Notes under the pieces: generated by a model
Told to the model about the DNA's origin: nothing
Seen by the model: only the letters and a program-made list of their open reading frames with translations
The model's database searches: none
Assembly: GCA_963697675.1 (NCBI GenBank)
Contig: CAVOOW010000010.1
Span: forward strand, 73,230 to 137,229
DNA length: 64,000 bases
Direction: 5' to 3'
Origin: an uncultured Actinomycetota bacterium
GTDB lineage: Bacteria > Actinomycetota > Actinomycetes > JACCUZ01
Shown here: piece by piece, positions 7,250 through 41,707 of the stretch
Layout of the letters: each line of letters opens with the position of its first letter
How positions within the stretch are numbered: position 1 is the first letter of the stretch
Translations under genes and position numbers: made by a program

Positions 7250-7272
7250 CAAACCGAGGCGCTTCACAGAAG

Positions 7273-7441
7273 TGGTGGGCCCCGTGGGACTCGAATCCAC
7301 AACCTACGGATTAAAGAGGAATCGGCCTGGTCAATCCCAGGTCAGAGTGTCCGGTGCTCTTCACCTGCGCGGTCGACACTGGACGATCTCTCGTCGGTGC
7401 CGGCTGGCTTTGGAAGCATTGCGGGACTGAGTGCGGAAAGG
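7273..7441 (+). repeat. tRNA-Lys 3'-half repeat, copy A (tRNA part on minus strand, plus conserved arm)
   Basis: tggtgggccccgtgggactcgaatccacaacctacggattaaag matches the revcomp of the tRNA-Lys T-arm, acceptor and CCA. It is followed by aggaatcgg...cccaggtcaga...cacctgcg...ctctcgtcggtgccggctggctttggaagcattgcgggactgagtgcgg. It directly abuts the IS3 end. Confidence 0.7.
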
Positions 7442-8445
7442 CGAACCTGGCCCTGAGGTCCAGACGCTCGCTGAGGCAAGCAGTGGGTGGTCCTCAAAGT
7501 CCTGAGGCGAGCTCGACCTCGCTCAAGCGCACCGTACGGCTGCGCCGCCGGCCCGCGTGGCCGATGCTCACCCGGCGCGGCTGCACGTGCTACTGCAGGC
7601 CGGTCTATCGATCGTCTGCAGGCTCGATCTGCCGTTGGTGCCGGGAGGTCAGAGGATGGCGCCGCGCGGAGCCACTCAACGGCGGCGACGCCCCGGCCGT
7701 ACAGCACCAGCATCGATCACCGTGGCTGGTACGGAGTGCGCCCGAGTGCTCGGCAAGCGTTGACTGGCATGCTCGATGACCTGCGCGGGCTCGGCGTATC
7801 CGGGTCATCGTACGTAACGTCTATGATATCGCCGCCATCAAATGCACACGCAGCACGATCTCTCCCATGTCCAGTCCCCTAGGCGCCTAGGCAAGAAGCG
7901 GCATTGGAACGCTGGCGGCCGTTGGCCACCGAGCCGCCAGTTCGATGCATCGACTGGCGAGCCCGGAGGTAGCTGCGTCGTTGTCCTGGAGGTCTCATCT
8001 CAGCGTCCCCCGGGTCCACTTCACCAGCATCTGTGTCGTCACAAGCTGTCGGGCTGGAGTCGCAGTACGGCGCACCTTCGACAGGCGGGAACCCCCTCGT
8101 TTGACACAGAAAGGCTATCAGCCGAAATCTTTGGCCGGGCCGGTAGTGACAGGTTCTGTTTGGCGGCGCCATTCGTTTGGATCACGCACCAGGTCAGTTG
8201 CCCGCCCCTCCGCCGTGCCGGAGACAACGTGTCAGACAACCAGACCTAGGCCTACGCCCAGCCCCGCCGGCGGGGTTCGTCGACCCACGCGCTGGGGCGT
8301 GAAGGACAACGTCGCCGACCGGTTCGCGAACGCGGACGTTGTCGCCGGACCGGGGTCTCGTGCACCGCGTCGACTTCACGTTCCACCACGTCGGCTCGCC
8401 GTCAGATTTCGTCAGCGCGTTCCGCAATTACTACGGACCTGCTGG

Positions 8446-8865
8446 CTACACCGGGGCGGTGATCGTCGCCTCGGCGACCAGGATGCTCACGTCCGGGGGC
8501 TGCTCGAGAGTGCTGTGGACTGTGCAGGCTCGGGCCACCGCGAGTAGGGCGGGGAGCCGCTCTGGTGGCAACGCCGGTGGGGGAGTGATACGGAGTGTGA
8601 TGCTGGCCACTCGGGCCGGGCGGTCCTGCGACATCTGCCAGCTGGCGTCCACGCGCAGCCCGTCGCGGCAGATGTGGTGGCGGGCCAGGAAGCCACCGGC
8701 GTAGTGCGCCACGCAGGAGGCGAGGCTGGCCACGAACAACTCGACGGGGGTGGGTCCGAGGTCGGTGCCGCCCGTGTCGGCCGGTTGATCGACGATCAGT
8801 TCGTGTCCGCGCACTCGTACGGCGTACCGGTCACCTCCCCGTGCCTTCACAACCATGGCAGCCAT
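8446..8865 (-). CDS. OsmC/Ohr-family peroxiredoxin-like protein
   Basis: GGTDLGPTPVELFVASLASCVA...ITLRI...ACTVHSTL. Confidence 0.75.
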   Translation of the reverse strand: MAAMVVKARGGDRYAVRVRGHELIVDQPADTGGTDLGPTPVELFVASLASCVAHYAGGFLARHHICRDGLRVDASWQMSQDRPARVASITLRITPPPALPPERLPALLAVARACTVHSTLEQPPDVSILVAEATITAPV

Positions 8866-8902
8866 CTCCGCCGTCCTCTCCTGCTTGCGTTCAGCGTCGC
8901 CG

Positions 8903-9412
8903 TCAGATGAACAGGATTTGGGCGCCGTCGGTTTTCTCGATGAAGTCGGCGGCGCTGATGATCGCTTCGACGCCGCCGTAGAGGTCGTTCATGGTCAGGT
9001 GGTTCATGTCGGCGGACATCCGGCAGGCCCACAGGTGCCCGCCGGAGTCGACGATCTGCTCGAGGAACTCCGGGACCTCGGGGACGCCGAGCTCGGCGAT
9101 GGACTTCTTCATCTTCTTGGTGGCGATCGAGGTCATCCACGGCAGGCCGCCCAGGCCTTGCGGCATGTGGGTGGCGGTGTTGCCGAGCATGGTGAACTTC
9201 AGGTCGTCCATGGTCTTCTTGTTGATCAGCTCGAAGCCCCAGAAGGTGAAGAACAGGTGGGTCTCGATGCCTTCACCGAGGGCGGCGTTCGCCAGGATCA
9301 GCCCGGGGTAGGCCATGTCCAGGTTGCCTTTGGAGCAGATGATCGCGAGCTTGCGATCGGTGCGGGCCTCGTCGAACGAGGGGACGAGGGGGGTTGTCTG
9401 GGTGGTGGTCAT
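8903..9412 (-). CDS. DsrE/DsrF-like family sulfur-relay protein
   Basis: Internal start MTTTQTTP (cat at 9410-9412). KLAIICSKGNLDMAYPGLILANAALGEGIETHLFFTFWG matches COG2210 / DsrE-like. Confidence 0.7.
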   Translation of the reverse strand: MTTTQTTPLVPSFDEARTDRKLAIICSKGNLDMAYPGLILANAALGEGIETHLFFTFWGFELINKKTMDDLKFTMLGNTATHMPQGLGGLPWMTSIATKKMKKSIAELGVPEVPEFLEQIVDSGGHLWACRMSADMNHLTMNDLYGGVEAIISAADFIEKTDGAQILFI

Positions 9413-9450
9413 CGCTGGCTCCTTACGGTGGCAGCTTTCTGTTGGCAGCG

Positions 9451-9765
9451 TCAGACGCAGCCGTGGGGTTTGGGTAGGCCGGCGACGTAGGCCATCTTCT
9501 TGGCCGGCTTCTTGGGGAACAGCTCGAACAGCCGCTTGGTCGGGACTCCACCGACGGTCGACACGCGGCGCAGCGTGGCGGTCTCGCCTTGTTGCTGGAA
9601 GTCCTGGCGCAGGAACTTGAGCACGGCCAAGTGTTCGTCGGTCAGTGTGAGGCCGATCTGGGTTGCCAGGGCTTGGCCGAGGTCTTCGTCCCACTCGTCG
9701 TAGGTCGTGAGGAAGCCTTCCTCGTCCACGTGGACCTCGTGCCCGGAGATCGTGGTTACGGGCAT
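9451..9765 (-). CDS. TusE/DsrC-family sulfur-relay protein
   Basis: MPVTTISGHEVHVDEEGFLT...ends ...PKPHGCV, with the penultimate conserved Cys. AGGAGG RBS upstream. Confidence 0.75.
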   Translation of the reverse strand: MPVTTISGHEVHVDEEGFLTTYDEWDEDLGQALATQIGLTLTDEHLAVLKFLRQDFQQQGETATLRRVSTVGGVPTKRLFELFPKKPAKKMAYVAGLPKPHGCV

Positions 9766-11027
9766 GTCACACCTCCTGCTTCTCGGGCTGTTTGTCGGGG
9801 ATCGTCTTGCCGGCCATCGACATGTGCGCTGGAAGCGGGTATCGGGCGGCCGGGCAGCAGCAGGTGCCAGTACATCCACCGGAACGCGAGCTTGCCCCAG
9901 TGGTTGACCCGGGTCTCGGCCAGTAGGCGGAAGGGGCCGACGCGCGGCAGCGGGTAGGTGCCGGGCAGCGGCTCGGTGTCGTAGTTGAAGTCGATCAGCA
10001 GTGCCTTGCCGTCGCCGGCCTCGACGTAGCAGTTGGCGTGCCCGTCGAAACTGCCGGTCATCGGGCGCCCGTCGATGTGGGCCAGGAAGTTCTCGACGAA
10101 CACTTCGACGGAAAAGTGCGCCACCGAGCCGGCCTTGGAGGCCGGGATGTTCGAGGCATCCCCGACGGCGAAGATGTTGTCATGCCCGGTTGCGAGCAGG
10201 GTGTGCTTGTCGACCGGGACGTAGTTGAGCTCGTCGCCCAGCCCGGAGCGGGCGACGTAGTCGGCGCCCATATTCAGCGGGACGGTGACGAGCAGGTCGA
10301 ACGGCACTTCCCTCTCGTCGTAGGACACCAGCGTCTTCCGGTCGGCGTCGATGCGCTCGACGACGAAGTCCGGCTCGAGGGCGATCTTCCGCTCTTCGAG
10401 CATCCCGCCCAGCCGAGCGGAGGCGATTGGTTTGGTGAACGCTCCGGGCAGCGGGGTCACATAGACCAGCTCCACCCGGTCACGCATGCCCCGGCCGCGG
10501 AAATAGGCGTCGGCCAGGAAGGCGAACTCCAGCGGGGCGACCGGGCACTTGATCGGCATCTCGACCACGTGCACCACGACCCGCCCACCGGTGAACGTGC
10601 GCAGTTTGTCGCGTAACGCGAGCGCTCCGTCGAAGGTGTAGAAGTCGTGGATGCTCTCCCGCCACTGACCGCCGTCGAGCATTCCCGGTGTCTGATCCGG
10701 CCGGGGCGCAGTGCCCGTGGCAATCACGAGCTGGTCGTATGGCAGGCACTGGCCGTCCATCAGCCACACAACGTTCTGGTCCGGGACCACCTTGTCGATC
10801 TCGCCAGCCAGGAGCTCGACACCGTTCGGGATGAAACGTCGCGTCGGCTTGACCACATCGCCGGGCGCGGCGGCGCCGAAGGGTAGGAACAGGTAGCCGG
10901 GCTGGTAGTAGTGCACGTCGCTCTGCTCGACAACCGTGATCTGCCAGTCATCGCCAAGCCGGCGTCGCAGCTTGTTGACCACCATCGTCCCAGCGGTCCC
11001 GGCCCCCAGCACGACCAAACGCCTCAT
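9756..11027 (-). CDS. sqr: Sulfide:quinone oxidoreductase-like FAD-dependent oxidoreductase
   Basis: MRRLVVLGAGTAGT Rossmann start (cat at 11025-11027). NAD(P)/FAD-dependent pyridine nucleotide-disulfide fold with SQR-type length and motifs (AVGDASNIP). Confidence 0.7.
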   Translation of the reverse strand: MRRLVVLGAGTAGTMVVNKLRRRLGDDWQITVVEQSDVHYYQPGYLFLPFGAAAPGDVVKPTRRFIPNGVELLAGEIDKVVPDQNVVWLMDGQCLPYDQLVIATGTAPRPDQTPGMLDGGQWRESIHDFYTFDGALALRDKLRTFTGGRVVVHVVEMPIKCPVAPLEFAFLADAYFRGRGMRDRVELVYVTPLPGAFTKPIASARLGGMLEERKIALEPDFVVERIDADRKTLVSYDEREVPFDLLVTVPLNMGADYVARSGLGDELNYVPVDKHTLLATGHDNIFAVGDASNIPASKAGSVAHFSVEVFVENFLAHIDGRPMTGSFDGHANCYVEAGDGKALLIDFNYDTEPLPGTYPLPRVGPFRLLAETRVNHWGKLAFRWMYWHLLLPGRPIPASSAHVDGRQDDPRQTAREAGGVTCP

Positions 11028-11658
11028 CGCTGCCACCTCACTCTTCTGCACTTCAACGCTATGAGCCTTGCTGGTGTGGCGGAACTGCCATTCGTCCTGA
11101 CCTGGAAGGACGTACGGCACGAAGCTGGCTTGGCCCAACCCATCCGGGCCGTGGCAGGAGAAACCTGCGGGAGCCGATCCCGTCGGGGGCCGAGCCGATC
11201 GTCCAACCCGTGCCGGCGACTCGGCGGCTCACCGCTTCAGGAGCGGAGGCGGGACTTTGGGCGGGCTGGTTGACGGATCGTGCTGCATCGGGTCCTTGTC
11301 CTGTGCGCCCTCCTACTGATGACCGGCATCCGCAATCCGACCCCGGGCAGACTTCGAAGCCACGGGTCTCGCGCTCAGCGGAGAGCTGGATGCGCCGCTC
11401 GTCGAAACATCGACGTGGTGGCACGAGACATCTACGGCTCTGACGGCATCGACCTGTCGCCGGCGGTCGCGAAACGACTACCTTTCCACCTGAGCTGCTG
11501 AGGGCGACACAGCCTCTCGGCAGCTGGGCGCCAAAACGCAACGCATCGGCATTTCATCCGTTCGACGCGCCGTGACTTTCGACCCTGACCCTCGCCCATC
11601 ACCGGCTATAACATGCGAGCGACGACGCTGATTCGGTGCCGACATCAGGAGGCGCGCG

Positions 11659-12147
11659 ATGAGCATTCCCGACGACGTCAGGGGGTCTATCCGTCACGAC
11701 GAGGTCGAGGACCCTGGGGCAACGAACCCTCCGACCGACCACCGTGGCCTGCGTGTACTCGGCTTCGAGGAATGCCTAGAACGGTTGCGGACGGCACCGG
11801 TGGGGCGGCTGGCGTTCGTGGACACGGGCGAGCCTGTTGTGTTCCCTGTCAACCACGTTATCGACGGGGTTGACGTTGTCTTCCGGACATCGTGGGGCTC
11901 CAAACTCCAGGTCGCCGAGAATTCCGGCGTTGTCGCATACGAGGTCGACGGGTACGACAGCCGGGGTGAGACCGGTTGGAGTGTCGTCGTGAAGGGCACA
12001 GCCCAGCTCGCGTGTGAGAGTGTCGACACCGACCGCTACGACCAGCTCGGCCTGCGGTCCTGGGCCGACCTCAAGGGCCTCGGCTTCTGGGTGCGGATCC
12101 GTCCGGTCGAGATCACCGGGCGAGAGGTCATCCCAGCGCCGGGCTGA
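11659..12147 (+). CDS. Pyridoxamine 5'-phosphate oxidase family (FMN/F420-binding split-barrel) protein
   Basis: GRLAFVDTGEPVVFPVNHVIDGVDVVFRTSWGSKL...GWSVVVKG. Confidence 0.7.
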   Translation: MSIPDDVRGSIRHDEVEDPGATNPPTDHRGLRVLGFEECLERLRTAPVGRLAFVDTGEPVVFPVNHVIDGVDVVFRTSWGSKLQVAENSGVVAYEVDGYDSRGETGWSVVVKGTAQLACESVDTDRYDQLGLRSWADLKGLGFWVRIRPVEITGREVIPAPG

Positions 12148-12477
12148 CGGCGGCCTGCGGCGGACGGCCTTGGGTCGATATGTCCGGCCCCGTCAATGAA
12201 CCCCAAGACCAACCGGCAGAGCGAGGACGCGACAGACCGCGCACGAGTCACCCCGCCTTAAAATGCGCGGGGTTTCCACAGGTTGAACCGCGACCTAAGA
12301 GAAAGACAATTCAAAGCCCGGAACGCTCCGAGGTGCTGCCGGGCGAGGCCCGATCGAGCTTCAGACGGTCAACCCGGGATGCCTGCGGCCGCCAGTGCTC
12401 CTGTGTGTACGACGGCTGCGGCCCTGTCGATGCGGGCCACATGGCACACGACGTGCGACGACGTGTGCGACGCAAGA

Positions 12478-12724
12478 TGCGGACTTTTGCGGACCGGCGT
12501 CACCTACGACGATCCTCAACCTCAAAGCGCAACGCGCTGACCTGCGGAAACGTGGTGGGCCCCGTGGGACTCGAACCACAACCTACGGATTAAAAGAGGA
12601 TTCTGGCCATCAGCAACGTCCCAGGTCAGACCGTCCCAGTGCCTGTCACCTGCGTAGAGGACACCGGATGACTCTCGTCGGTTCCGGCTGGTTTCGGAAG
12701 CATTGCGGACTCAGTGCGGACCAG
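12478..12724 (+). repeat. tRNA-Lys 3'-half repeat, copy B (native-type downstream flank + tRNA 3' half + conserved arm)
   Basis: atgcggacttttgcggaccg...ctcaaagcgcaacgcgctgacctgcggaaacg | tggtgggccccgtgggactcgaaccacaacctacggattaaaag | aggattctggcc...cccaggtcaga...cacctgcg...ctctcgtcggttccggctggtttcggaagcattgcggactcagtgcggaccag. Confidence 0.75.
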
Positions 12725-13200
12725 TCCGAGGTCGTCGCGGCCGCTGAAACCGACGCCGGCGGCGGGTACACGCTTACCGCGATCCCGCCCCCGCTATCAC
12801 CTGCGACCCGAGGAAAGCGGACGGGGTCAATTTTCGGGCGGCGATGATCTCGAACAGTCATCCCAACGGCGGTAGGTGATGCTGACTTCCTAGATGATCA
12901 TGGAGGCGGCGATGGGCCTCCAGGTGTGGGTGACGAAAGCAGCCCCGGAAGGGGCGCCTTTCCGCCGGTGGGTGCCCTCGACCGCAACCCTCAGCCTTCC
13001 CGACCGTGCTTCGGGCCAATTTCATGGGCAGGCGCCGACCAGGATTTGACACCGGCGCGGCCTCCGGTCGAACTCCGATGCTTTGCCGATCAGTGGGTTG
13101 ACACGACACTCGCGGTCTATCACGGTTTGAGCAAGTTGTGCCGCCGACCTCAGGGCTGTGGCGCGACGTCGTTGCGGTATGGGGCATCGGGGGGCATGGC

Positions 13201-14451
13201 ATGTCAGGGCAGACTGGGCGCAAACAACGCGATACCCACCCCCCGACCCAAGCCAGGCCCGTTATCAGTGGTGCTGTGGCACCGAGGAAGCAGCGAAAGC
13301 TCCATCGGATTCGCGCGTTCCTGATCTTGGGCATAGCCATCTCGCTGGCGGCCATCTCGGGCTCTCATGCCGACGACGACGCGCCTGTCACGATCGGCCC
13401 CCCGCCAGCGAAGCAGCAGCGAAGGTTCCATTGGATTCGCAGGTTGATCCACAGCTACTGGCCGGTGTTTAGCTCGTTTGTCTTCCTGGCTGCGGCCATC
13501 GCCTTGGCATTTGCCTTGCGCTCCAACCATGACGACGCCATCCAGACGCCGAACTGTGACTCCAGCGCCACGTCGGTGGGCACCCGCGAGTGGCAGATCT
13601 GGATTGGCACGGTCTCGGCCGGCTTGGCAATCGCAATCGTGCTCGCCATCCACGGCATCGTCCGCCTCAAGCGGATCCCCGGGCATTGGCCCCCGCGCGC
13701 CGATGTCGGGAAGGTGGCGGTCTGGTTGCATGGCGTCGCGGCGCTGGCATGGATATATGGGCTCGGACGAGCCGTCTCCGAGCTCGTGCACGACCCACGC
13801 ACTTGGCCACTCGACGACATGGAGTTACGCCTGCAATGGGTAGCCGGCATCGGGCTGCTGTGCGCCACACCATGGCTGGCGATGACCTGGCTGTGCCATA
13901 AGGCTGTCCACGGTTACTGGGTCGAGCCGCACACGCTGCGCACAGACCTGCAGGACAAGGACAAGCCGACGCGGGACATGACCAAGACCGATGCCGACAT
14001 CGCCGCGCTGCAGCAGATCTGGAGCCAAATCGTTGGCATCGCCCTTGCGTTCGCAACCCTGGTCGCGATCTCGCTCATACCGACTGGCGCGTTGCGCAAC
14101 CTGTGGCTGTCGCAGAACGTCGACGGCGAGGATGCGAAGAAGAGGCTGGGGGAGAGCTTCACGACCACCGACGTGTTGCTCTACGGCGCGATGTGGGCCC
14201 TGGTCGCCGCATCGGTCGTCATCCCGCTGGTGGCATCGTGGCGATCGACCGCGCAGTCGGTGGTCGACGCGGCGTACCCACCCAACGCAACCATCGCTGC
14301 TGACAAGGACGCGAAAGAGACACGCGAATCGCTGGAGTCGATGCTCAACCTGAGCTCAGGGATCTTGCGCAACCCGCTGACGGTACTCACCGTCGCAACT
14401 CCATTGGTCACTGCGGCCCTGGCCGCATTCATCCCCGAGCTCGGGACGTAG
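13201..14451 (+). CDS. Hypothetical polytopic membrane protein
   Basis: Long ORF with several hydrophobic segments and an internal roughly 40-nt direct repeat near the 5' end. No recognisable family, so the start is uncertain. Confidence 0.3.
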   Translation: MSGQTGRKQRDTHPPTQARPVISGAVAPRKQRKLHRIRAFLILGIAISLAAISGSHADDDAPVTIGPPPAKQQRRFHWIRRLIHSYWPVFSSFVFLAAAIALAFALRSNHDDAIQTPNCDSSATSVGTREWQIWIGTVSAGLAIAIVLAIHGIVRLKRIPGHWPPRADVGKVAVWLHGVAALAWIYGLGRAVSELVHDPRTWPLDDMELRLQWVAGIGLLCATPWLAMTWLCHKAVHGYWVEPHTLRTDLQDKDKPTRDMTKTDADIAALQQIWSQIVGIALAFATLVAISLIPTGALRNLWLSQNVDGEDAKKRLGESFTTTDVLLYGAMWALVAASVVIPLVASWRSTAQSVVDAAYPPNATIAADKDAKETRESLESMLNLSSGILRNPLTVLTVATPLVTAALAAFIPELGT

Positions 14452-15054
14452 GCGTCGACCCCGCAAAACAGGGCAGTCAAGATGCCCTGTGGATAAATCT
14501 GACTAGAAGTGCTGAGAAGGATCCGGTTGTCCACAGAAACAGCGTGGTCGGGTTTGTTGCCAGCAGAGTTACCCGTGAGGTTGCGATTGAGGACCAACTA
14601 GAAGATCGGCTGCTCCGGGAGCCGAGGCGGCCAGGCCCGCCGCCAGCCCGACTCCTTGACGAGGTCGAGCTCGTTCTGGCCAGTGGGGCGCCACAAGGTC
14701 ACCGCGTCAAGGTTGTCAGGTACGGGTCGCTGCCCTGGGTCGCATCGGCACATCCGTCGGACCGCACGGGCACCGGGCGGGCGCTTGATCGGCGGGTTCA
14801 GCTCCGCGGCGTCATTCCCCCGGTACAGCTGGGCGGGGCGGCCCAGGCCGACCGGTAAGCCGGTGCGGGTCTCCGTCGACGGTTGCACCAACCCGGGCGC
14901 CCGCAGGACCTTGCGGCGGAAGCTGGCGCGATCGGCCAGCGGGACGCCCCACACCGCTGATCCCGAGGAGCCGAGCCATGAGCCTGATCCTGTTCCGCCC
15001 ATGGCCAACCGGTTGCCCGCCGCCACCGACACAGGGACCGGCGCTGCCGTCGCA

Positions 15055-16721
15055 CTACCGGGTCAGCAGGACGTAGCCGACCACGCAGGTTGCGGCGAGC
15101 ACGGCCCCGATGAGCGGGAGCCCGAACTTGGCGAACGTGGCCGTGCTGTAGCCACCGGGGCGCATCACCATCAGGTTCGACTGGTGGCTGAACGGGTTGA
15201 TGAACGTGAACGAGATGCAGGTGGCGACGACGGCGAGAAGGATGACGGGGCTGACGTGCATCTCGGCGGCGATGCCGATGGCGACGGGCGTGAGGATGGA
15301 CGCCGCAGCCGAGTTGGTCACCAGGTTGGTCATCAGCGTGGTGGTCAGCGCCAGCACGATGACGACCAGCAGGACATTGCCCGCCGCCAGGTAACTGATC
15401 CCTCGGGCGATTCGCGCCGCCAGCCCGCTGGTCACCACGACCGCGCCCAAGCCGACCGATCCGGCCAGGATGAACAGCACGTTCCAGTCGAGGGCGCGTG
15501 CCGCGGATCTGGGCGTGAGCACTCCGGTGAGCACCATCAGGATCGCCCCGCTGAACGACACGAGTTCCACGGGGGCGAGCCCGAACGACGCAGCGACCAC
15601 CACGGCCGCCAGCACCGAGAGTGCGATCCAGGTCTTGCCCGGCTGCGGCGTCCGGCCGGCGACGTCCTGCCAGAGCGCCACGGACTCGCTGTCCCGGAGC
15701 ATCTCCGCACTGGTCCCGGTCACGAAGCAGGTCGCGCCCGGAGTCGCCGGCGTCTCGCTCAGGGACTGCGTCGTCTGTGCGGCGATGACGCGGAGGCCCG
15801 CCGTCGTCGTCGAGCTCCTTGAGGCTCCCGTGGACGCTGGTGCGCACGGAGACCTCATAGAGCCGACGCGGGGAGAGCCCGAAGTGCGGGCTGCCCCACA
15901 GCGCGGTGACGCCGGCCTCGGTGGCCGCGAACACCAGAACGTCGTCGGCCTCGATGATCTCGGTGGCGGCGAGCGTTTCGCCGGACCGTCGGATGGCCTG
16001 CGAGCTCGAAGACCTGGGTTCGAGCCATCCCAGCTCCGCTGCCACGCCGTCCGCGAGCCAGCGCCCGCCCGGAGACCGGGATCTCGACCCGCCAGTCCAT
16101 CGGGACGGCGACGGGTGCGCCAGCCGATCCCCGGAGGATCAGCGGTGCGGTGATGTAGATGACCAGCGCTCCGACCAGGGCGACCGGAAGCGCGACCACG
16201 GCGAACGACAGCATCGACGACGTGGACGCCGGCGGTGCCGGCGATGCCGGCGATGAGCAGGTTCGAGCTCGTGCCGATGAGAGTGATCGAGCCGGCCAGC
16301 GTCGTCACGTGGGCGATCGGCAGCAGGACCTCGCGGGCCGGGACCTCGCGGGTCTGCTCGAGCTCCTTCGACGCCGGGATCAGCATGGCGACGATCGGCG
16401 TGGTGTTCATCAGGCCCGAGGCGACGCCGACGGGGACGATGAGCCGCCGCAGTGACTGGCGCGCCGTCGTCACCGTGGACAGCAGCCGCCACGTGACCCG
16501 CGTGACGATCCCGGTCAGACGATGCCCTTCGCGATCACGAGCATCGCGGCCACCGTGATCACGCCGCCGTTGCTCAGGCCGGCGAAGAGGTCCCTGGTCG
16601 GAGTGACCCTGGTCAGCCCGGCGACGGCCAGCCCGGTAGCCAGCGCGAGGACCGGCGGGACCTTGCCCGACGTCATCGCCAGCAGCGTCGCGATGACGAT
16701 GACAGCGGCGAGGTACATCAT
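15055..16721 (-). pseudogene. SLC13/DASS-family permease with central TrkA-C (RCK_C) domains; at least three frame changes
   Basis: N-terminus MMYLAAVIVIATLLAMTSGKVPPVLALATGLAVAGL.. (frame of 16515..16883). Then LIVPVGVASGLMNTTPIVAMLIPASKEL... TrkA-C GETLAATEIIEADDVLVFAATEAGVTALWG sits in a third frame. The C-terminal permease half is intact. Confidence 0.5.
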
Positions 16722-16885
16722 CGGTCCCGGGCCCAGGTCGGCGTCACCGAAACAACGTAGACCTCTGCGTTCTCCGGCACGACGGGCATCGTCGCGACTC
16801 GGGGGCCTGGAACGCTCGGCACCGGCAGGGGTGGTCCGGTGGTCGAGATACGTCGAGTTGGGCCCGGCAATGTCCCTCGCCAAGA

Positions 16886-31644: not shown

Positions 31645-31727
31645 CCCGCACAACAGCACGAGACACATCGGCACCGGCCCGGTGCCACCCGCCCATCGCA
31701 CCACCCAACAAGTTAAGGAGTACTGGC

Positions 31728-33257: not shown

Positions 33258-33769
33258 TCCCTGGGGTCTCGATCCTCCTGGGACATCGTCGACTCGACGT
33301 GGTCCGGACGGGCGGAGTGTTTCGCGCGGCGCTCCCTCAGTCGGTGGGCAGCCTCATCGGATCTTCTTCCAGTCGGTGGCTTGGAAGACCCATCCGAAGT
33401 CGGCTACGTCGGTTTCGGTCCACCGCACGGTCCCGTCGCTCGAGGTGGAATCGCGCTGACCACACGAAGGGAACGCAGTCACCCCCGGCAGCCCGTTCAC
33501 CGTCCGGGTGAAGGTGGCAACATCGGCCGAGACCGAGATCCAGCCGCTGCAGGGCACCACGGGGAAGGTCGAGTCCGTAGGTGTCTGACTCGAGGGACCA
33601 GCGACCGTTGCCGATGGTCCAGGTCTACAGGCCGGCGTTCTCTTCGAGGAACTCGGCTGTTGCCTTGCCGCCGCTGGCTCGGGACATGTCCGCCTCGGTC
33701 ATCGAGTAGCGGTACGTGCCCCGTGGCAGGGCGCCGGTCGGGCCCGGACCGGTGAGGGGTTCACGGTGT

Positions 33770-34870
33770 CCGACGCCGCGAGGGCGCGCATCGCCCGCGA
33801 CGAAGGTGCACCCGCTTGGGATGGTCACGGTCGGGTCGCGTCCGGCTTTGTCTCGCAGAGCACCGACCTCGTGAACGAGCTCGTCGATCCACGACGGTTG
33901 TCGTTGATGTCCGATCGCGCGCAGCCCCGCGGTTCGCATCGCGTCGAGCTCTGTGCTGCTGGCCAGCGCCGCCTTGCTTCCGGACCGACAGGCGTTGCTG
34001 TAGCCCGGTCGCGTCGGAGTCTGCGGCGTGTCGCACGGCCCAGGTGGCGGCGCTGGCCGCCGCGCCGTGGAGCCAGCCGCGTTGTTGCGGACTGAGGTCG
34101 CGCCAGGTGTGCGGGCTGGCCATCAGGACGACGGCGCGTGGCCACAGCCGCACGTTGGGCGCGACGAACGGGAGGGTTTCGGGGTAGCCCCGCCAGGTTG
34201 ACTCGCCGCTGTCGATCAGCCCGGACTGGGTCAGCGTCTGACGGTCGCGGGGGTCGACGACCGGGGTCGCGCCCAGAGCCCGGATCCCCGCTTCCTGGCT
34301 GCCCGGGGAGCTGGTGGAGAAGGCTCGTCCGCTCCAGTCGGCGGCGGTGACGATGGGGTGGTCGGTGGCGGCGGCGAATCGCAGACCTCCGGCGAGCAGG
34401 GCGAGCGGCATGACCCCGGTCTTGGCGGGCACGTCGGCCAGACAGTTGCGCCGAGTGGCGCCGGAGGACCTGCGCCTGCAGCTGGTAGGAGTCGATGAGC
34501 AGCGGGACGAGCAGTGGTCGCAGGCTGGTGACTCCCAGGGTGTCGAAGGTGTGCGCCTCCGCCCAGCCGAGGTCCACGCGCCCAGCCGCGACGCGCTGGA
34601 TGACCCGTCGCTGCTCGTCGGTGTCGCGGGCCCGGGTGCGGACCTCGACCTTGAGCTTCCCGCGGCTACGCCTGGTGACCTGTGCCACGAACTCCGGGAT
34701 CGCCGGTGCGCCGACGATCGAGCCGGGTAGCGCCGCGTCCGCCAGCACGAGCGTCCGCTCCGGTGCGATGACAGGCCGTTCTTGCCGGCCAGGGTGCCAC
34801 CGGTGCAGGACGCGAGCAGAACCAGCTGGGCGAGCGCCAGCGTCGCGGAGAACGTCCGGAGGACGCCCGA
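33770..34870 (-). pseudogene. Periplasmic solute-binding lipoprotein (TRAP/DctP-like), at least three frame changes
   Basis: Lipobox LLASCTGG. Then ADAALPGSIVGAPAIPEFVAQVTRRSRGKLKVEV...RVDLGWAEAHTFDTLGVTSLRPLLVPLLIDSYQLQAQVL. A further frame reads PLALLAGGLRFAAATDHPIV...WRGYPETLPFVAPNVRLWP. Confidence 0.4.
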
Positions 34871-35542
34871 GGCGGGCTCATCGGATGTCCACGGTCGGGT
34901 TGCGCAGGAGGGCGACGACGGCGGCCACCCGTCGGTTGACCGTGGGTGTCGTCGTGGATCCCGAGCTTGCGGAAGATGTGCGCCACGTGCGTCTCGACGG
35001 TCTTGGCTCCGACGTGCAGGGACCCGGCGATTGCCTCGTTCGACCGGCCCTCGGCCATCAGCGCGAGCACCTCACGCTCGCGAGTGGACAGGGCGGAGAG
35101 CGGTCCGGCGGCCGCCGCACCCGCCATCAGCCTCGTCACCAGCTCGGGGTCAACGACGCATTCGCCGGCCACGACCCGGCGCAGCGCGTCCAGCAGCGTC
35201 GATGCCTCGCTGACCCGGTCCTTGAGCAGGTAGCCGACGGCCCGCGGTGTTGTCCTCGAGCAGTCGTTGGGCGTAGGTGGCGGCGACGTACTGCGACAGC
35301 ACCAGGACGGCCGTCTTCGGGTAGCGGACTCGGATCTTCTCGGCCGCCACGATGCCCTCGTCGGTGTGCGTCGGCGGCATCCGGATGTCGACCACGGCGG
35401 CGTCGGGCTGCTCCAGGGCGACGAGCCGGAGGAGTCCGGCCGGCTCCGATGCCTCGCCGACGGTTTCGATGCCTTCGCCGGCGAGCAGGCTCCGCAGGCC
35501 TTCGCGGACGATCACCGCGTCGTCAGCGATCACCACTCTCAT
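34860..35542 (-). pseudogene. NarL/FixJ-family response regulator, frameshift near 35240
   Basis: Receiver domain MRVVIADDAVIVREGLRSLLAGEGIETVGEA...VVDIRMPP. LuxR HTH LSTREREVLALMAEGRSNEAIAGSLHVGAKTVETHVAHIFRKLGI is in another frame. Confidence 0.55.
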
Positions 35543-37034
35543 GTTCTCTCCAACTGTGCCGGGCGCAGTGCGCCGGGCCGGTGCGCCACGTGGAGCTCAC
35601 CGGCGAGGGCCGTCACCCGGTCCTCGACCCCGATGTCGTCCATGGACGGCGCTGTCGCGCGTAGAGCCGGATCGCCGTCGTCGAGCAGGCGCACGCTCCA
35701 GCACTGCCGGGGGGTTCGCGTCGCAAGCGTGATCTCCATGTTCGAGGCGTGTCGCCGTCGTGCATCGCCCAGTGCCCACTGGGCAGCGGCGTAGGCGGCG
35801 GCCTCTACAGCGGCGGCCGGATCGCGGGGCTCGGGGCGCGTCGGTCCGCGGTGGTCAACGACGCGTACGACGACCTGGGTGCTGGTGTCGGCCAGTTCCT
35901 GCAAGGCGAAACCGAGGCCGAGGTCGGCCAGCAACGGAGGATGGATGTCGTGCGCGATGGTGCGGACCTGGGCGAGCGCCTCCTTCACGAGCGTGTCCGC
36001 GCGGTCCAGCTTCGGTGCCGACGTCCTGGTCGCTGCCCGCGATCGTCGGTGCGGGCTTGGCCGCGCACCCGGCGCACGGTCATGGCCAGCCCGACGAGCC
36101 GCTGCTGGGCCCCGTCATGAAGATTGCCGCGCAGCTCCCGACGCTCCGACTCCGAGCGCTCCACGAGGCGCTGCGCGGTCGCCCGTGCCGCCGTCAGCTC
36201 GGCTCGGGTCGCGGCCTGCAGCCGCGCGGTGTCGAGGGAGAGCACCATCGCAGGGCGCAACGACCTCAACAACCGGGCGGCCGGCAACGACGCGCGGTGG
36301 TTGACCGCGGCGATTCGCCTTGCCGCGGTTCGTCACGGTGGTCACGGCCCGCCGCGCCGTGCTGTCGGCACCGTCGCTGCCCGGTGGTCCCAGCCTTGCC
36401 CGTCGCGGGTACGTCGTCTCCGTTGGCGTCTACCCAGGTCGACCGTGACTCGGCCCACCACACGATCGTGAGCGCGGGGTCCTTCACGGCGGCGGCCAAC
36501 GTTGCCTGTAATTCGACCAGGTGTCGAGACGCGACCTATCTCCCCGGCCAGCCGGTTCAGTCGTACCGAAGTCGTCCACGATCGGGCTCGCCGCCAGCAC
36601 AGGCACGCCACCAGTCCCAAGGCGCTGGCTTGCGCCACCGCGAACGCCCACGTCCGCGGGGGACCGGTCGTGGTGTCCGCGACGGAAGCGTCCGGCAGGA
36701 CCAGGGCGGCCAGGCTCACCGCCAGCGGGACTCCCACCAGCGAGGCAAGGAGGTCCTCGTGACGCCAGCCGGGACTGCGCAGAATGTGGGCCGGCAGCGC
36801 GGCCGACAGCGCCACCGTCGCGATCAGCACAGCCCGCAGCAACCACCCGCCGGCGCCGAACGGGTCCACGGCCGGTGTCAGGCAGGCGCGCCAGCAGCCT
36901 GGTTCCTCGAACGAGTTCCAGGTCAGCGCGGCGACCAGGCTCGCCGACGCGAGGACGCCAGCGGCTCGTCTCCAGTGCGACGGGGTCGACGGCACCCCCG
37001 ATCCGGTCGCCAGCAGCGCGATGGCCGGCAACAC
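35539..37034 (-). pseudogene. NarL-type sensor histidine kinase (HisKA_3 + HATPase_c), disrupted
   Basis: ERRELRGNLHDGAQQRL (HisKA_3) and ...ITLA...DDGDPAL...MDDIGVEDRVTALAGELHV (HATPase_c) lie in different frames. An in-frame TGA at 36342 separates the membrane N-terminus. Confidence 0.5.
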
Positions 37035-37419
37035 GACGGCGCTGCGCCCGTGAGACGAAGGTCGTCACCGTTCCCGCATGGGTCCACCCGGCCCAGTCCG
37101 GCATCGTCCACAGCAGTCCCACGAACAGGAGCGACGGGACGAGCCGTCCCGCGTGATCGGACGCGATGAACGAGGCGGCGACCAGAGCCACTGCCACCAG
37201 AAGGGCGAGAACGAACCTGCCCGCCGACGCTGCGCCGTAGCTGGTCGACACCAGCGTGGGTGGTCGACTCGCGCTGACCACGATGACCCCTGCGGCCACC
37301 GCGACCAGCAGGCCCGACGCGACGCGCGGTCCCGCGCCCTCGCAGGCGAACAGGGCCAGCGATCAACACGGCAGCCTCGCGACCAGGGTCAGCCCGGCGC
37401 CTGACGGGACGAGCACGTC

Positions 37420-38750
37420 GGAGATCTCCGCCGAGGGCAACGATGCGGTCGCGGACGCCCGTCAGCCCCGTGCCGCGGGCGCCTTCGATCGGAGGGTCGA
37501 TGGCGCAGCTCCCGTCGTCGCTGATCGAGGCGACCACCGCGTCGGCCAGTCGCTCGATGTGGATGGTCGCTCCGGTGGCGCCGGAGTGCTTGACCGAGTT
37601 GGTCACCGCCTCGGCGCACAGGTACCAGAGGGCAGTCTCGACGGATCGCCTCGAGCCGCCCGAGTGGCACGTCCGTCATGACCTGGATGGGAACCGTGCC
37701 GGCCAGGTCGGACAGGGCTGCACGAAGTCCCCCGTCTGAGAGCAGCTGCGGGTGCAGTCCCTGCGCGATGCGCTGCAGGTCATCGAGAGTCCGCTCGACC
37801 TGGACGACGGCGGTGCCCACCTCGCCGCGAGCCGCGGACTCGTTGACGCTGGCGCCGATCGTCAGCAGCGTTTCCCGCAGCTCGTCCAGAAGCGGGTGAA
37901 CCGTGGTAGCCCAGCCTTGCGGCGAGTTGCTCGCGTTCCGTGTCGGCAGCGGTCACCAGTCGCCGCTGCAGCGCTCGCGACTGTGCGACCTGCAGTTCGA
38001 GCTGGGAAACCATTGCGGCGTTCGCCTCCAACATCGCCCAAGCGCGCCGAGTACGCCTGCGGGGCACGGGCGGAGGCGGCTGGCAGCAGCAGCCCGGTGA
38101 TGCCGGCGCCAGGTTCGCTCGCGATCTCGATGACGTGGTCTCGCAGCTGCGCGTCGGCGCCGGGATCGGCCCAGGCGATCACGAAGCAGACACGCCCCCG
38201 CCGCCGCCAGCAGCGACGACCCGACGATGACGCCCCACGCGGGCGACAGCGTCAAGCCGCAACGTGACGAGGGCCGCGGGTAGGGCGATGCCGAGCCCGA
38301 GGAGAACACCGGCGACGCCGTACGCGAGGACTCGGCGACGCTCGCGCCGCGTGTGTCGCCTTCGCGCGGGCGTACGCGCCGCAGGATCGCGATCGTCGCT
38401 CCGACCAGAGCCAGAAACTCGGCCACCTGGCCCGCCCCGAGCCCACGACCCGCGGCCGCGACCGCGAGGACGGCCACCCCGATCAGTCCCGCCCACGCCC
38501 AGGCCTGCGATGCACCACCGCCGCCATTCGATTGCCTGACAGACCCGGTAGGCCGGGGAGCACCGCGACCGCCATCGCCGGCCACCAGATCGCCGACATG
38601 CGGACGTCCAGACCGGCGAGGCACCAGCTGCCGCCTGCTGCCAGCGCCGACCGCGGCCCGGTCGCCGCGCAACGGGCGTCCCACCCAGACCGCCGCGGCG
38701 CCGAAGAAGCCGACAGCCACCGCGGCAGTCGAGCAGGTGCGACCACACAC
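37420..38750 (-). pseudogene. Second NarL-type sensor histidine kinase paralogue, frameshifted
   Basis: TAADTEREQLAARL...; LRAALSDLAGTVPIQVMTDVPLGRL; MTNSVKHSGATGATIHIERLADAVVASISDDGSCAIDPP..GTGLTGVRDRIVALGGDL, in at least three frames. Confidence 0.4.
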
Positions 38751-39000
38751 TGCCCCGCAGCACCGACTCTCCCAGCGCGACCAGGCAACCGCTGAGCAGC
38801 AGGACCAGAGCGCGCGCGACCCGCGGGTTGGGACCCGTCGCCGTGACCTCGATGCGCTCGTCGTCCAGGGAGCCGCCCATCACATTCCGCACTGTGGCAC
38901 AGCCGCCCCCAGAAGGGTCCGAGATGGCCGGGACGACGGGACCGCGCGAGCCCCGCCGCTCGGGCAGGGACGATGATGCCGAGCACCTCGCCCGCGAACG

Positions 39001-39982
39001 TCAGCGACGTTTCGGTCCCCACGCTGGGAAGTTGACCGGTTGCGATCGCGTTGCCGCGACGAGCACGTGCAGGTCGCCGGCGTCAGGATTCATCACACAC
39101 AGGTTGTCGGTGTCCGTGGGCGACCCAGTGGCCGCAGCCGACCAGCAGCTTGCGGCCGTCCGGTGACCAGACCGGCTTGAAGAAGTTCCAGCGATCGTCG
39201 CGGCTCGGACGACGTGCAGGCCGCTACCGTCCGGGTGGACGGCGAAGATCGACCCTGCTCCGGGCGCGCCGTGCGACTCGGGCCAGATGTTGAAGATCAG
39301 TCGACTGACCGTCGGGGGACCAGGCGGGATGCTCGAGTCCGGGGCGGGGGGCGACCACTTCGTGAAGTTCGGTTCCGTCGGTGCGCACCACGTAGATGGC
39401 TTCGTTCTGGAGGAAGTCGGTGGGGCTGGTGGGCCCGACGATGCGACCGAAGGCGATCTGCTGGCCATCGGGCGAGAAGACCGGCTCGACGTCGAACCCG
39501 CCGCGGGTGACCTGACGCGGGTGTGATCCGTCGACGTCCATGACCCAGATGTCGGTCGTGAACGCCGGGTCGTCCGGCAGCAGCGTCAGAGGCGTCGAAG
39601 GCGAGAAGTCGCCCATCAGGCGAGTAGCGCGCGTCCTCCTGGATGCCGCGACCGAAGGTCAGCTGTCGCTGCCCGGTGCCGTCGGGACGGATCGTGGCGA
39701 TGTGCTCCCCGGTGTCGTCCGGGAAGTCGAACGCGACTCGGCCCCGTCCGGCGCCCAGTTCGGCATGAAGCTCGGCACGGTCGTCAGCGGTCGCTGGTGG
39801 GTGCCGTCCGCGTCCGCCGTCCAGAGGCTGAAGTCGCCGAGCGCCGGGTCGAACCGGCCGAACGCGATCGGCCCGTTGCGGACACCCGCAGCGTCGCTCG
39901 GGCCGGCGGACGAGGCGACACAACCGGCGGCGATGACGACCGCTGCGACGAGTCGGGACAGTTTCTGGTGCGACGTGTGCAT
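39001..39982 (-). pseudogene. Secreted TolB-like beta-propeller (PD40/WD40-like repeat) protein, multiple frameshifts
   Basis: Signal peptide MHTSHQKLSRLVAAVVIAAGCVASSA. PD40 repeats (SPDGxxLAF / IYVVRTDG / IFAVHPDGSGLHVV / MNPDAGDLHVLV) are distributed over four frames. Confidence 0.45.
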
Positions 39983-40169
39983 GGTGACCTCCCTGTGGGA
40001 CCCACGGACGTGGGTGACCACATCAGTGCACTCGTCGGCGGCTGCCGCCGTCGTCCGGGCCAGCCCGGATGCTGTGATCGAGCACCTGTGCCACAGTGCG
40101 AATGTGGCGGCGGCGTGGCGCACAGAAGCGTCACGCGATGCGTGGCGATGTCTCGGTGATGTTTCGGCA

Positions 40170-40257
40170 AGACGGCGGACTGTTGCGGACTGGGGGTCGC
40201 CACGACGAAGTTCAATCTCACAGCGCAACACGCTGACCTGGGTAAACGTGGTGGGCC
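40170..40257 (+). repeat. Native downstream flank of tRNA-Lys (copy F), separated from the tRNA by the IS481 insertion
   Basis: agacggcggactgttgcggactg...acgacgaagttcaatctcacagcgcaacacgctgacctgggtaaacg | tggtgggcc, then the IS481 inverted repeat. Confidence 0.7.
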
Positions 40258-41630
40258 TGTGGACTGTCGGCTGTTGCTTGACGGATCTGTTTCGGGTGAT
40301 CCTTGACACTCCGTTTCTGGAATCTAGGGCCGCGGGCCGCTGCCTGCGGCGTGTTTCTTGCGGATGGGTCGGTTGCTGGTGCGGGCCACCGTCTTGACGA
40401 GCTGACTGCCGACCCAGAACTGCAGCAGGTCGCCGGTGACCAGCACGTCGCAGGGCGAGCCGCTGTAGTTCTTCCCGACACTGACTTGTTGGTAGCCGAC
40501 GCAGACGATGCCGTTGGCGGCGACCTTGCGGGAGACCCACGCGTCGCCGTCGCGTTGCGCTGCCCGCGGTGCCGGGACCCGCCCGACCGGGCTCAACGCG
40601 GTGGTCTCTGTGGGGTGGAACCGGCTGTCCGGGGTCGCGTTGCCCAGTGACTGGTGGGGTCGGGCCTGGTTGTAGTAGTCGACCCATTCGTCCAACGCGG
40701 CCTGGGCGATCCGCAGGCTGGTGAACACCTGGGTGGTGTCGAACTCGGTGCGCATACTGCGGTGGAACCGTTCGATCTTCCCGGTGGTGGTCGGGGACCG
40801 TGGCGCGGTGAGCAGGTGCTCGATCCCGTTCTCCCGGCAGATCCGGTCGAACAGCACCTCCACCGGCGGGTGGTGGAACCGGCCGGTGAACACCTTCCCG
40901 TTATCGGTCAGGATCTGCTCCGGGACCCCGTGCGCGCGCAGCGCCGCAGCCAGGCCGTCACAGACCAGCTGGGTGCGTTCCCGGGGCATCAACCGGGCCG
41001 ACACGCAGAACCTCGAGTGGTCATCGACCCCGGTCAACGCCTTTGACGGTCGACCCGTCGGCGAGCAGGAACCCGCCGACCACATCGAGCTGCCACAGCT
41101 CCATCGGCGCGGCCCGTTCCCAGCGTTTCCACTTCTGCGCCCGGCGCCGGCGCGACACGGGGTCGATCACCCCGGCCCGGACCAGGGCGCGGTAGATCGC
41201 CGACTCCGAAGGCACCGGGTCCACCCCCAGCCTGGTCAGCTCGAGCCGGATCCGCCGCGGCCCCCAATACGGGCGGGCCCGGCGCAGCTCGAGCACCCGC
41301 GCCGCCAGCTCGCGCCGGCAGCTGGTGCGGGCACGAGTTCGGCCGGTGCGACCGGTCCCCCAGGCCCTCCAGGCCCTGGGCCTCATAGCGGGCCAGCCAC
41401 GCGTGCAGCGTCTGCCGGCTCACCTTCCACTGCCCGGCCACCTCGGTGACCGTTCGGCCGTCGCTGATCACTGCCAGCACAGCCTGATACCGCTGCTCAG
41501 CCACGCTCATCTCCCTCATACAAGGGAGTGTCAAGAATCAGCCGAAGTAGCTGTCAACCATCAGCCGAACATGTGTAAAGCCTCAACCGATGCCGAACTG
41601 TCAAGCATCAGCCGAGGCCTTACACAGAAG
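40258..41630 (-). mobile_element. IS481-family insertion sequence
   Basis: Imperfect terminal inverted repeats tgtggactgtcggctgttgcttgacgg (40258-40284) and ctgtcaagcatcagccgaggccttacaca (41600-41628). Flanking direct repeat ggtgggcc on both sides. Confidence 0.7.
40324..41534 (-). pseudogene. IS481-family transposase, two frameshifts
   Basis: HTH MSVAEQRYQAVLAVISDGRTVTEVAGQWKVSRQTLHAWLARYEAQGLEGL; ARVLELRRARPYWGPRRIRLEL...MELWQLD; DDE core TDNGKVFTG...TAPRSPTTTGKIERFHRSM. These lie in three frames. Confidence 0.75.
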
Positions 41631-41633
41631 GGG

Positions 41634-41707
41634 TGGGCCCCGTGGGACTCGAACCCACAACCTACGGATTAAAAGTCCGCAGCTCTGCCTGGTTGAGCTA
41701 GAGGCCC
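41634..41707 (-). tRNA. tRNA-Lys (anticodon UUU), the only complete copy
   Basis: The minus strand reads gggcctc-ta-gctcaaccaggcagagc-t-gcgga-cttTTTaa-tccgt-aggtt-gtgggttcgagtcccac-ggggccc-a. The 7-bp acceptor includes one G-U pair. The encoded CCA has been replaced by IS481 sequence (acc c). Confidence 0.8.

Follow-up and report, generated by a model that had tools for sequence, protein, structure and literature searches.

Gene blocks lacking an integrase between copies of a tRNA-Lys(UUU) 3' half: a probable product of serial site-specific integration in an uncultured actinomycete

The 64,000-nucleotide stretch of contig CAVOOW010000010.1 analysed here (the window; 68% GC) contains an intact tRNA-Lys(UUU) gene and, downstream of it, a 34-kb array in which copies of the tRNA 3' half lie between unrelated gene blocks. 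The intact gene stands at one end of the array and five halves, labelled A to E, stand at the boundaries of the blocks, all of them on the minus strand. The proteins encoded in the window fall near those of metagenome-assembled genomes (MAGs) of uncultured actinomycetes in the Sporichthyaceae and Nocardioidaceae.

The repeated core, O, consists of the final 44-45 nt of the tRNA gene, beginning at C32, the first base of the anticodon loop (41675 to 41632 in the intact gene). Copies of O are found on the minus strand at 7273 (A, three mismatches), 12553 (B, a 1-nt deletion in the T arm), 16960 (C, no mismatch), 23274 (D, one) and 33084 (E, one), and identity to the tRNA is 44/44 in C, D and E, 98% in B and 91% in A; none would be expected by chance, as judged from shuffled sequence. 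The initial annotation of this DNA had listed six recurrences of a 45-nt segment; those at A to E are real, and the sixth, "copy F" at 40248, is tRNA-derived over only 9 nt. It had also held that the window has a single intact tRNA-Lys, and both ARAGORN and Rfam RF00005 agree, all other copies scoring below the tRNA gathering score. The match to the tRNA breaks off exactly 5' of C32 in the alignments of A, B, D and E, where the annotation had placed the divergence, and another sequence takes the place of the tRNA 5' half. We refer to this 5' arm of O as P, to the 3' arm as P', and to a 5' arm of a second family as P2. Read along the tRNA strand, the locus runs tRNA-O, an IS481-family insertion sequence (IS), P', island 1, P-O-P' (E), island 2, P-O (D), region 3, P2-O-P' (C), island 4, P-O-P' (B), island 5, P-O (A) and IS debris. 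The features are as follows, with gene contents assigned by Pfam (and, for island 1, also by a scan of GC content at third codon positions, GC3).

41632-41707, minus strand: intact tRNA-Lys(UUU), the putative attL core (B plus O); ARAGORN, and 67.6 bits with Rfam RF00005.
40258-41626 (or to 41630), minus strand: IS481-family element of 1.37 kb that splits the putative attL at the O/P' boundary; Pfam and end sequences.
40164-40257, minus strand: "copy F", consisting of 9 nt duplicated from the tRNA end and of the P' of the putative attL (40164-40248), with a CCAGGTCAG box and GTCCGCA/GTCCGCC repeats.
33261-40163: island 1 (6.9 kb, heavily decayed), with fragments of a GerE-type response regulator, a histidine kinase, DctP and PD40.
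33003-33260, minus strand: copy E, a complete attP-like hybrid site (P 33129-33260, O 33085-33128, P' 33003-33084).
23450-33002: island 2, with two LuxR-family regulators (AAA_16/TPR plus GerE) and a fragment of a third, a flavin monooxygenase-like protein, an FAD_binding_3 monooxygenase and OsmC.
23275-23449, minus strand: copy D (P 23319-23449, O 23275-23318), followed by a flank other than P' (CTTTGACCTGCG...).
17071-23274: region 3 (6.2 kb), with an IS110-family transposase (17253-18437), an RTX-like gene (19031-20218) and a Lipoprotein_15 protein.
16877-17070, minus strand: copy C (P2 17009-17070, O 16960-17008, P' 16877-16959).
12728-16876: island 4, with a CitMHS-family transporter, a small wHTH-like open reading frame (ORF) and a membrane-like ORF of 437 aa.
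12472-12727, minus strand: copy B, a complete attP-like hybrid site (P 12597-12727, O 12553-12596, P' 12472-12552).
7446-12471: island 5, with a sulfide:quinone-reductase-like flavoprotein (9756-11138), DsrE_2, OsmC and a PNPOx-like protein.
7246-7445, minus strand: copy A, the distal attR-type end (P 7316-7445, O 7272-7315), then CTTC and about 22 nt of an IS481-like left end (7246-7271).
2435-7245, minus strand: IS debris between copy A and a tRNA-Gly/Cys/Val cluster, with an IS3-family OrfA (6887-7213), rve fragments (3926-4561) and fragments of a group II intron reverse transcriptase (RT)/maturase (Pfam; Rfam RF00029).

Alignment and self-BLAST show that P (about 130 nt) is common to A, B, D and E and that P' (about 85-95 nt) is common to B, C, E and F. 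The 130-nt 5' arm of the initial annotation is thus present in four copies, copy C having P2 instead. Its 95-nt 3' flank is likewise shared by the four copies named but does not adjoin the intact gene at present, which precedes CTTC and an IS481-like end. Copy C departs from the others in retaining 48 nt of tRNA identity, which takes in the CGGAC of the anticodon stem and exceeds that of the other copies by four tRNA bases, and its P2 arm is shortened by the IS110 element; the 3' flank of copy D is also non-standard. Pairwise identities are 71-89% among the P arms and 74-89% among the P' arms, and the P' of copy F is 91% identical to that of copy C by BLAST. The P' copies of the window are as distant from one another as from a P' in another species (L090, described below; 74-80%). 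Congruence of P and P' similarities, tried as a guide to which arms travelled together, was uninformative.

Both arm types share a layout. The short direct repeat noted initially (gcggacNNN(N)tgcggac) is genuine and sits at the outer end of both: paired GTCCGCA heptamers, spaced 11 bp in P and 10 bp in P', occupy the distal end of every P and P' arm, and these account for 15 of the 27 occurrences of the heptamer in the window. Its reverse complement, TGCGGAC, is the 5' side of the tRNA anticodon stem, adjoining the presumed crossover. Judged from their placement, the pairs are candidate arm-type binding sites for an integrase or a recombination directionality factor. Closer in, CTGACCTGG occurs in P, 24 nt before O, and its inverse, CC(A/G)CAGGTCAG, in P', 5 nt past O. 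The whole attP-like P-O-P' unit is about 270 bp.

The element beside the tRNA has the features of the IS481 family: a DDE (rve) transposase domain, a leucine-zipper helix-turn-helix, inverted repeats and a short target duplication. Pfam places LZ_Tnp_IS481/HTH_28 at 41034-41534 and rve/rve_3 at 40324-41085 in two overlapping frames, and a frameshift disrupts the ORF. Its termini are TGTG...CACA, each with TCGGCTGATGCTTGACAG-type repeats in terminal and subterminal positions, and the element is flanked by GGCCCACCC (41639-41631) and GGCCCACCA (40257-40249), an 8/9 duplication of GGCCCACC(C/A). The tRNA-derived part of copy F is this same GGCCCACCA at 40249-40257, and the remainder of the claimed half is the right end of the IS481-family element. 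Removal of the element joins the tRNA to P', which is the attL that an integration model predicts.

On the other side of O, the intact tRNA is followed by CTTC and an IS481-like left end (41630-41605, about 26 nt), a flank that it has in common with copy A and that is lacking in B, C, E and F. We rejected this flank as a native chromosomal sequence, since it matches the IS481 inverted repeat and occurs as a solo end in a relative (L088). An IS481-like left end lies 2-5 nt after a tRNA-Lys 3' end at three junctions in two genomes (41627-41605 and 7271-7246 in the window, 8475-8405 in L088); in a further relative, L087, the 9-nt flank is too short to be assigned to such an end. These junctions reflect either targeting of GGCCCACCA by the IS or an old junction copied through recombination between O copies. 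A second IS, of the IS110 family, is situated within the P2 arm (17009-17252 / 17253-18437): homology to the L088 arm ends 62 nt from O, and the transposase ORF begins 245 nt from the O of copy C. Neither the IS110 nor the IS481 transposase was retained as a candidate for the recombinase of the islands, as neither yields 44-48-nt direct repeats of a tRNA half.

The gene blocks themselves were described accurately in the initial annotation, as judged by Pfam. They are multi-gene, of mixed orientation and partly pseudogenised, and a comparison of composition shows that GC3 is lower in island genes than in the flanking core genes (0.83 against 0.88, p = 0.008). The annotation had reported that the 64 kb contain no integrase gene, and this is borne out. 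Pfam scans of the principal ORFs of the whole window and of 179 further stretches (all those of at least 75 aa without a stop in still unassigned DNA of the intervals 2-24 kb and 31.6-40.3 kb) found no Phage_integrase (PF00589), resolvase, large serine recombinase or Xis-type helix-turn-helix gene; Pfam scans detected no relaxase, coupling protein, Xis or HTH_17 in the array; and tblastn of the integrases of relatives against the window was negative. We discarded one weak tblastn hit, between integrase C-termini and 33236-33346 (E 0.04-0.4), since it overlaps a P arm and has the wrong position and orientation. The mobile-element genes that Pfam does identify are IS3 and IS481 DDE transposases, the IS110 transposase and the group II intron RT/maturase fragments. 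The islands accordingly lack the integrase of their own that the Islander and TIGER island finders look for in each island, and, with integration and transfer genes both missing by Pfam, they have the gene complement of cis-mobilisable elements (CIMEs). Within island 2 there is an internal repeat of 72% identity (23971-24583 versus 29506-30116), which places the AAA_16 N-terminus of the 883-aa LuxR regulator in a truncated paralogue.

An evolutionary context for the locus is provided by relatives found through a class-V aminotransferase gene that lies 5 kb from the tRNA and was used as an anchor; their contigs are 80-96% identical to the window at the nucleotide level, and the tRNA-Lys genes of four of them (L087, L088, L090 and L101) are 100% identical to that of the window. 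The 5' side of tRNA-Lys is collinear in all anchored relatives, with the aminotransferase and PrsW genes followed by pit and pst where contigs reach them, whereas the 3' side is different DNA in each relative whose contig passes the tRNA. In L088, L090, L091 and L101 the tRNA is directly beside the aminotransferase-PrsW block, which extends to pit in L088 and L090. L087 (MAG GCA_047520385.1; 96% identity) has the same block with an MFS-HxlR pair between tRNA and aminotransferase, as in the window, and its contig ends 9 nt past the tRNA, as expected at a repeat. With O copies in one orientation and a variable 3' side against a conserved 5' side, the neighbourhood has the properties of a tRNA-island array.

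Arms or related sequences are present in several of these loci. In L088 the tRNA is followed by a 1.3-kb element with one gene, for a secreted protein, and then by a P2-like arm that is 85-92% identical to the P2 of the window and has three GGGCAAC repeats further out; the second tRNA half that follows is 48 nt long and continues into an IS481-end flank, like the junction at copy A. In L090 and L091 the intact tRNA-Lys is followed by a P' arm including the GTCCGCA pair, and about 45 nt past P' a tyrosine-integrase gene, frameshifted and reading toward the tRNA, has its 3' end. Database searches gave a single relative of the L090 remnant, a PF00589 protein that is encoded in a Sporichthyaceae MAG (L094) and is 79% identical to it; the C-terminus in the integrase P0242 and in the L090 remnant reads RHGFGSY..LGHASVDVTARVYAH. 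In L094 this integrase fragment lies beside the 3' half of a different tRNA with the same arm layout, namely a direct-repeat pair, a hairpin and then a CCGCAGGTCAGG (CCGCAGGTCAG) box that stands 5 nt from the tRNA end. The adjacency of P' to an integrase remnant in L090 and L091, together with the layout in L094, indicates that the P' arm family carries or once carried an adjacent tyrosine integrase. An intact integrase-bearing element with both P and P' was not found among the relatives, which contributed only the pseudogene of L090 and L091 and the fragment of L094. Arms of the window's families that are present in the relatives are attached only to tRNA-Lys or its half. In L101 a different flank follows the tRNA-Lys, and 3.3 kb further on there is a gene 86% identical in nucleotide sequence to the RTX-like gene of region 3; the flank of copy D resembles the sequence after tRNA-Lys in L101 and in L087.

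Two further observations concern the arms in these genomes. The 9-nt box CTGACCTGG, or its inverse CCAGGTCAG, turns up in both att arms and also within a few bases of the 3' ends of tRNAs, and it does so with more than one tRNA and arm family: in P arms (e.g. 12621-12629), P' arms (e.g. 12534-12544) and the flank of copy D (23262-23271) in the window, and at 1068-1078 in L086, about 3600 in L094 and about 9829-9837 in L101. Candidate roles for it are a host factor site, an integrase site, or a tRNA processing or termination signal. L094 also has an integrase ORF of 551 aa (289-1944), preceded by an HTH_17 (Xis-like) gene, that reads through a tRNA-like 3' half (1689-1742), and 1.2 kb on there is a second integrase fragment beside another tRNA half; the arrangement looks like another small array of tandem elements, here at a tRNA other than tRNA-Lys.

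Repeated site-specific integration at tRNA-Lys(UUU), giving a tandem array that now consists of integrase-less, CIME-like islands, is in our judgement the probable explanation of this structure. The initial annotation had proposed an attL-(P-O-P')n-attR array formed by serial accretion and integrase-less in cis; the anatomy of the locus fits that proposal once the IS481-family element is recognised, and the relatives agree with it. An incoming circular element would have carried an attP composed of about 130 nt of P, the 44-45 nt of O and about 90 nt of P', and its integration, presumably by a tyrosine integrase that is hypothetical here, would restore the tRNA and leave the element with O-P' and P-O at its two ends. 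Later integration into an O copy would then generate the internal P-O-P' hybrid sites. The simplest history is one in which a P2-type element arrived first, P/P' elements next entered both of the O copies flanking it, and IS elements came last, with the IS481-family insertion at the O/P' boundary beside the tRNA giving rise to "copy F". The outcome is four P/P' islands (1, 2, 4 and 5) that flank one P2-bounded segment (region 3), two arm families being present; region 3 is either a P2-family element or an old chromosomal flank. As O is identical in C, D, E and the tRNA yet the arms are only 71-89% identical, and the P' copies are equally far from that of L090, the islands are best explained as separate arrivals of diverged elements and not as local duplications. 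The five units could be moved only if a cognate integrase came from another part of the genome or arrived with an incoming relative, and some or all of the islands are probably fossils.

Several observations weigh against this explanation. An integrase of the arm family was not found in cis in the window, so that the recombinase has to be postulated. The P-O junction lacks an obvious left core half-site (GAATCCT where the tRNA has TGCGGAC), so that the position of the crossover is a presumed one. Region 3 has a gene in common with the tRNA-Lys neighbourhood of L101 at a core-like identity of 86% and may be old chromosome and not an element, and the most decayed island adjoins the tRNA, contrary to a simple order in which the newest element lies next to it. 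Homology among the P' copies of the window runs to about the point at which an integrase gene would end, with no remnant of one beyond it; had all the islands originally carried an integrase, its loss would have been remarkably clean. Finally, the P arm was not found outside the window in searches of IMG/VR, GTDB species genomes, JGI metagenomes and phage and plasmid collections. Exact and degenerate pattern scans of IMG/VR for P' and P gave no match, nor did the P-O junction pattern in GTDB species genomes or the P pattern in JGI metagenomes, and blastn of the whole unit against the phage and plasmid collections matched the tRNA part only. Six IMG/VR loci that encode relatives of the integrase fragment at 36-48% identity have no tRNA-Lys and no arm similarity.

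Other explanations differ in how they treat the arms and region 3. The locus may be two independent structures: one array of two islands would end in copy D as its true attR, with region 3 as the native chromosome beyond it, and copies C, B and A would form a second array at an older P2-O site further downstream. The flank of copy D, CTTTGACCTG..., does resemble the sequence after the tRNA in L101, TTCCTGACCTGG..., and that in L087, the RTX-like gene of region 3 has its counterpart 3.3 kb downstream of the L101 tRNA-Lys at a nucleotide identity (86%) similar to that of core genes, and the distal repeat of an old, small element in L088 is P2-O. The flank similarity extends over only some 8-10 nt, however, the ABC/FtsX genes of L101 are absent from the window, and P2-O still needs an earlier integration, such that this arrangement differs from serial accretion only in the order of events; we regard it as possible but rather unlikely. 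A less probable proposal is that the locus is a dedicated cassette platform, where attP-only cargo modules are captured, excised and reshuffled at tRNA-Lys by one chromosomal or helper tyrosine integrase. It would account for the lack of a recombinase in all five units, for the clean absence of integrase remnants, and for arms that are full-length with conservation stopping sharply at the GTCCGCA pairs; the perfect conservation of O in the non-tRNA copies, the apparent use as targets of both O copies flanking region 3, and the 1.3-kb single-gene element of L088 with its own arm and triple GGGCAAC repeat also suit it. Against it, the integrase remnant beside P' in L090 makes the integrase-less state look like decay, the islands are multi-gene, of mixed orientation and partly pseudogenised (island 1 being decayed), O is damaged in copies A and B, and Pfam finds no platform integrase beside the tRNA. 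We give little credence to tRNA-Lys as a standing capture site in this lineage, at which a tyrosine integrase encoded elsewhere would insert, excise and reorder integrase-free modules made up of hardly more than genes and a roughly 270-bp attP, from a single gene (1.3 kb, L088) to about 10 kb in size, and equally little to its being a functional analogue of an integron in which the integrase half-site TGCGGAC has been reused as the arm repeat.

Two readings dispense with site-specific integration. The array could be of local origin, the tRNA-Lys 3' region having been duplicated segmentally or through unequal crossing-over and unrelated DNA having been inserted between the copies later, and homologous recombination between O copies is indeed possible, the O-CTTC-IS481-end junction being present both at the tRNA and at copy A. 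This is very unlikely given that the arms differ by 11-29% while O is identical, that P replaces the tRNA 5' half precisely at the anticodon loop, that the P' copies of the window are as divergent mutually as they are from the copy of another species, and that the contents of the islands are unrelated. The initial annotation had offered as its alternative a tRNA-derived miniature inverted-repeat transposable element (MITE) or non-coding RNA family, and the P-O-P' unit of about 270 nt, which recurs with ends defined by short direct repeats, invites comparison with a MITE, a SINE-like repeat or a small structured RNA. This alternative fared worst and we consider it highly improbable. The unit has no terminal inverted repeats or target-site duplications, all copies are in one orientation at one locus, the arms in relatives occur only at tRNA-Lys or its half, and the parts separate, P' being found without P on an intact tRNA (L090) and P without P' in A and D. 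No covariation is seen: the RNAalifold covariation terms are positive (+2.8 and +1.1) and variation mostly breaks predicted pairs, in an alignment whose four sequences give low power. The fold of the full unit has a z-score of -0.08 relative to shuffled sequence, and it matches no Rfam family.

Among the other insertions and deletions near the array, we note that, in comparison with L088, L090 and L101, the window has an insertion of about 5 kb (41743-46713; MFS transporter, HxlR regulator and two patatin-like ORFs) at 36 nt upstream of tRNA-Lys. The MFS-HxlR pair is an insertion found only in the window and L087 among the relatives compared, and L087 is without the patatin part (44046-46705). 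The MFS frame of the window continues into the tRNA (536 aa compared with 481 aa in L087) and its 3' end is probably frameshifted; use of this gene as a synteny anchor in GTDB recovered 80 loci, none of them with tRNA-Lys. Further upstream, a 1.37-kb insertion between pit and pstB (53300-54665) encodes one gene with AbiEi_4 and MTES_1575 (restriction endonuclease-like) domains and is bounded by 124-nt inverted repeats (53306-53429 and 54518-54636; 87% identical). L088 shares this insertion with the window and L089 lacks it; it may be a small mobile element of unknown type.

Beyond copy A, a group II intron (4724-6925, minus strand) with RVT_1 and GIIM fragments and a GTGCG-like 5' end near 6925 apparently interrupts an IS3-family element; its domain V-VI, at 4724-4822, scores 38.1 bits with RF00029 (E 5e-5), just below the gathering score. 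Past this debris, hutH and the tRNA-Gly/Cys/Val cluster (2161-2434) are kept in relatives of about 85% identity (L083, L084 and L085), and the sequence after tRNA-Val differs in each, so that the cluster may be a second variable junction. Synteny in the hutH-anchored relatives breaks past the cluster, and the left boundary of the array is not defined thereby.

The locus offers a dissectable example of how 34 kb of accessory genes, among them genes for sulfide detoxification, transport, regulators and monooxygenases, can gather beside a single tRNA gene, here in an actinomycete of soil or freshwater type that is uncultured and whose lineage is without genetic tools. The arm layout (distal repeat pair, CTGACCTGG box, core, inverted box, second repeat pair, integrase stop codon) provides candidate sites for an integrase and accessory proteins, and mobility of the islands in trans, if it exists, would make the locus a natural platform for stacking cargo.

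CIMEs and tandem accretion were first described for the ICESt1/ICESt3-related islands of Streptococcus thermophilus (reviewed in PMC5704250), and that review cites Zhang and Loria (2017) for the accretion of Streptomyces pathogenicity islands. Like CIMEs, the units of the window have kept attL/attR-type sites and lost integration and transfer genes, and they lie in tandem at the 3' end of a conserved gene with internal hybrid att sites. The window differs in that all five units are integrase-less, that the 64 kb contain no integrative and conjugative or integrative and mobilizable element as a partner, and that the host is an uncultured Sporichthyaceae-like actinomycete and the target the anticodon loop of tRNA-Lys. 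Tandem arrays of elements in tRNA and tmRNA genes have been catalogued by Islander and TIGER (PMC4383910, PMC7192596). As in those arrays, there is an intact tRNA gene at one end, displaced 3' fragments in the same orientation, diverse islands and an anticodon-centred site, the last being a class that accounts for 2083 of 3919 Islander islands (PMC4383910). Both pipelines need one integrase per island, so that integrase-less arrays like this one are invisible to them and go uncalled (PMC4383910, PMC7192596); under that requirement Islander arrays of at least three are rare, with four among 2168 genomes (PMC4383910), whereas the window has five units and two arm families. A close precedent is the ssrA locus of Dehalococcoides, where many islands lie in tandem downstream of the one small-RNA gene and are bounded by repeats of its 3' end, and where about half of the islands lack an integration module and have been proposed to be CIMEs (PMC3146451). 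Those islands also have conserved sequence beside each repeat, but with a serine integrase (DsiB), a 20-bp repeat and a tmRNA T-loop site, unlike the 44-48-nt repeat from the anticodon loop, the long arms with paired repeats and the remnant tyrosine integrase of a relative described here.

The attP sites of arm-binding tyrosine integrases, such as those of lambda, mycobacteriophage L5 and pSAM2, are about 270 bp long, with pairs of direct repeats about one helical turn apart and an integrase gene that ends by one arm. By analogy the unit of the window, at about 270 bp with distal repeat pairs and with an integrase end beside the arm in L090 and L094, resembles such an attP, and the identity of its arm repeat with the reverse complement of the tRNA 5' core half-site is unusual for arm-type sites. 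The array also recalls an integron in having recombinase-less cargo modules separated by recombination sites, but it has no intI, attI or Pc and no attC-type hairpins (z -0.08), its modules are multi-gene and of mixed orientation, and its sites are tRNA-derived. The array is therefore a further instance of an established type, that of tandem islands at tRNA and tmRNA genes and of CIMEs, and is distinguished by five units that are all integrase-free, by two arm families, by explicit arms and by its host lineage.

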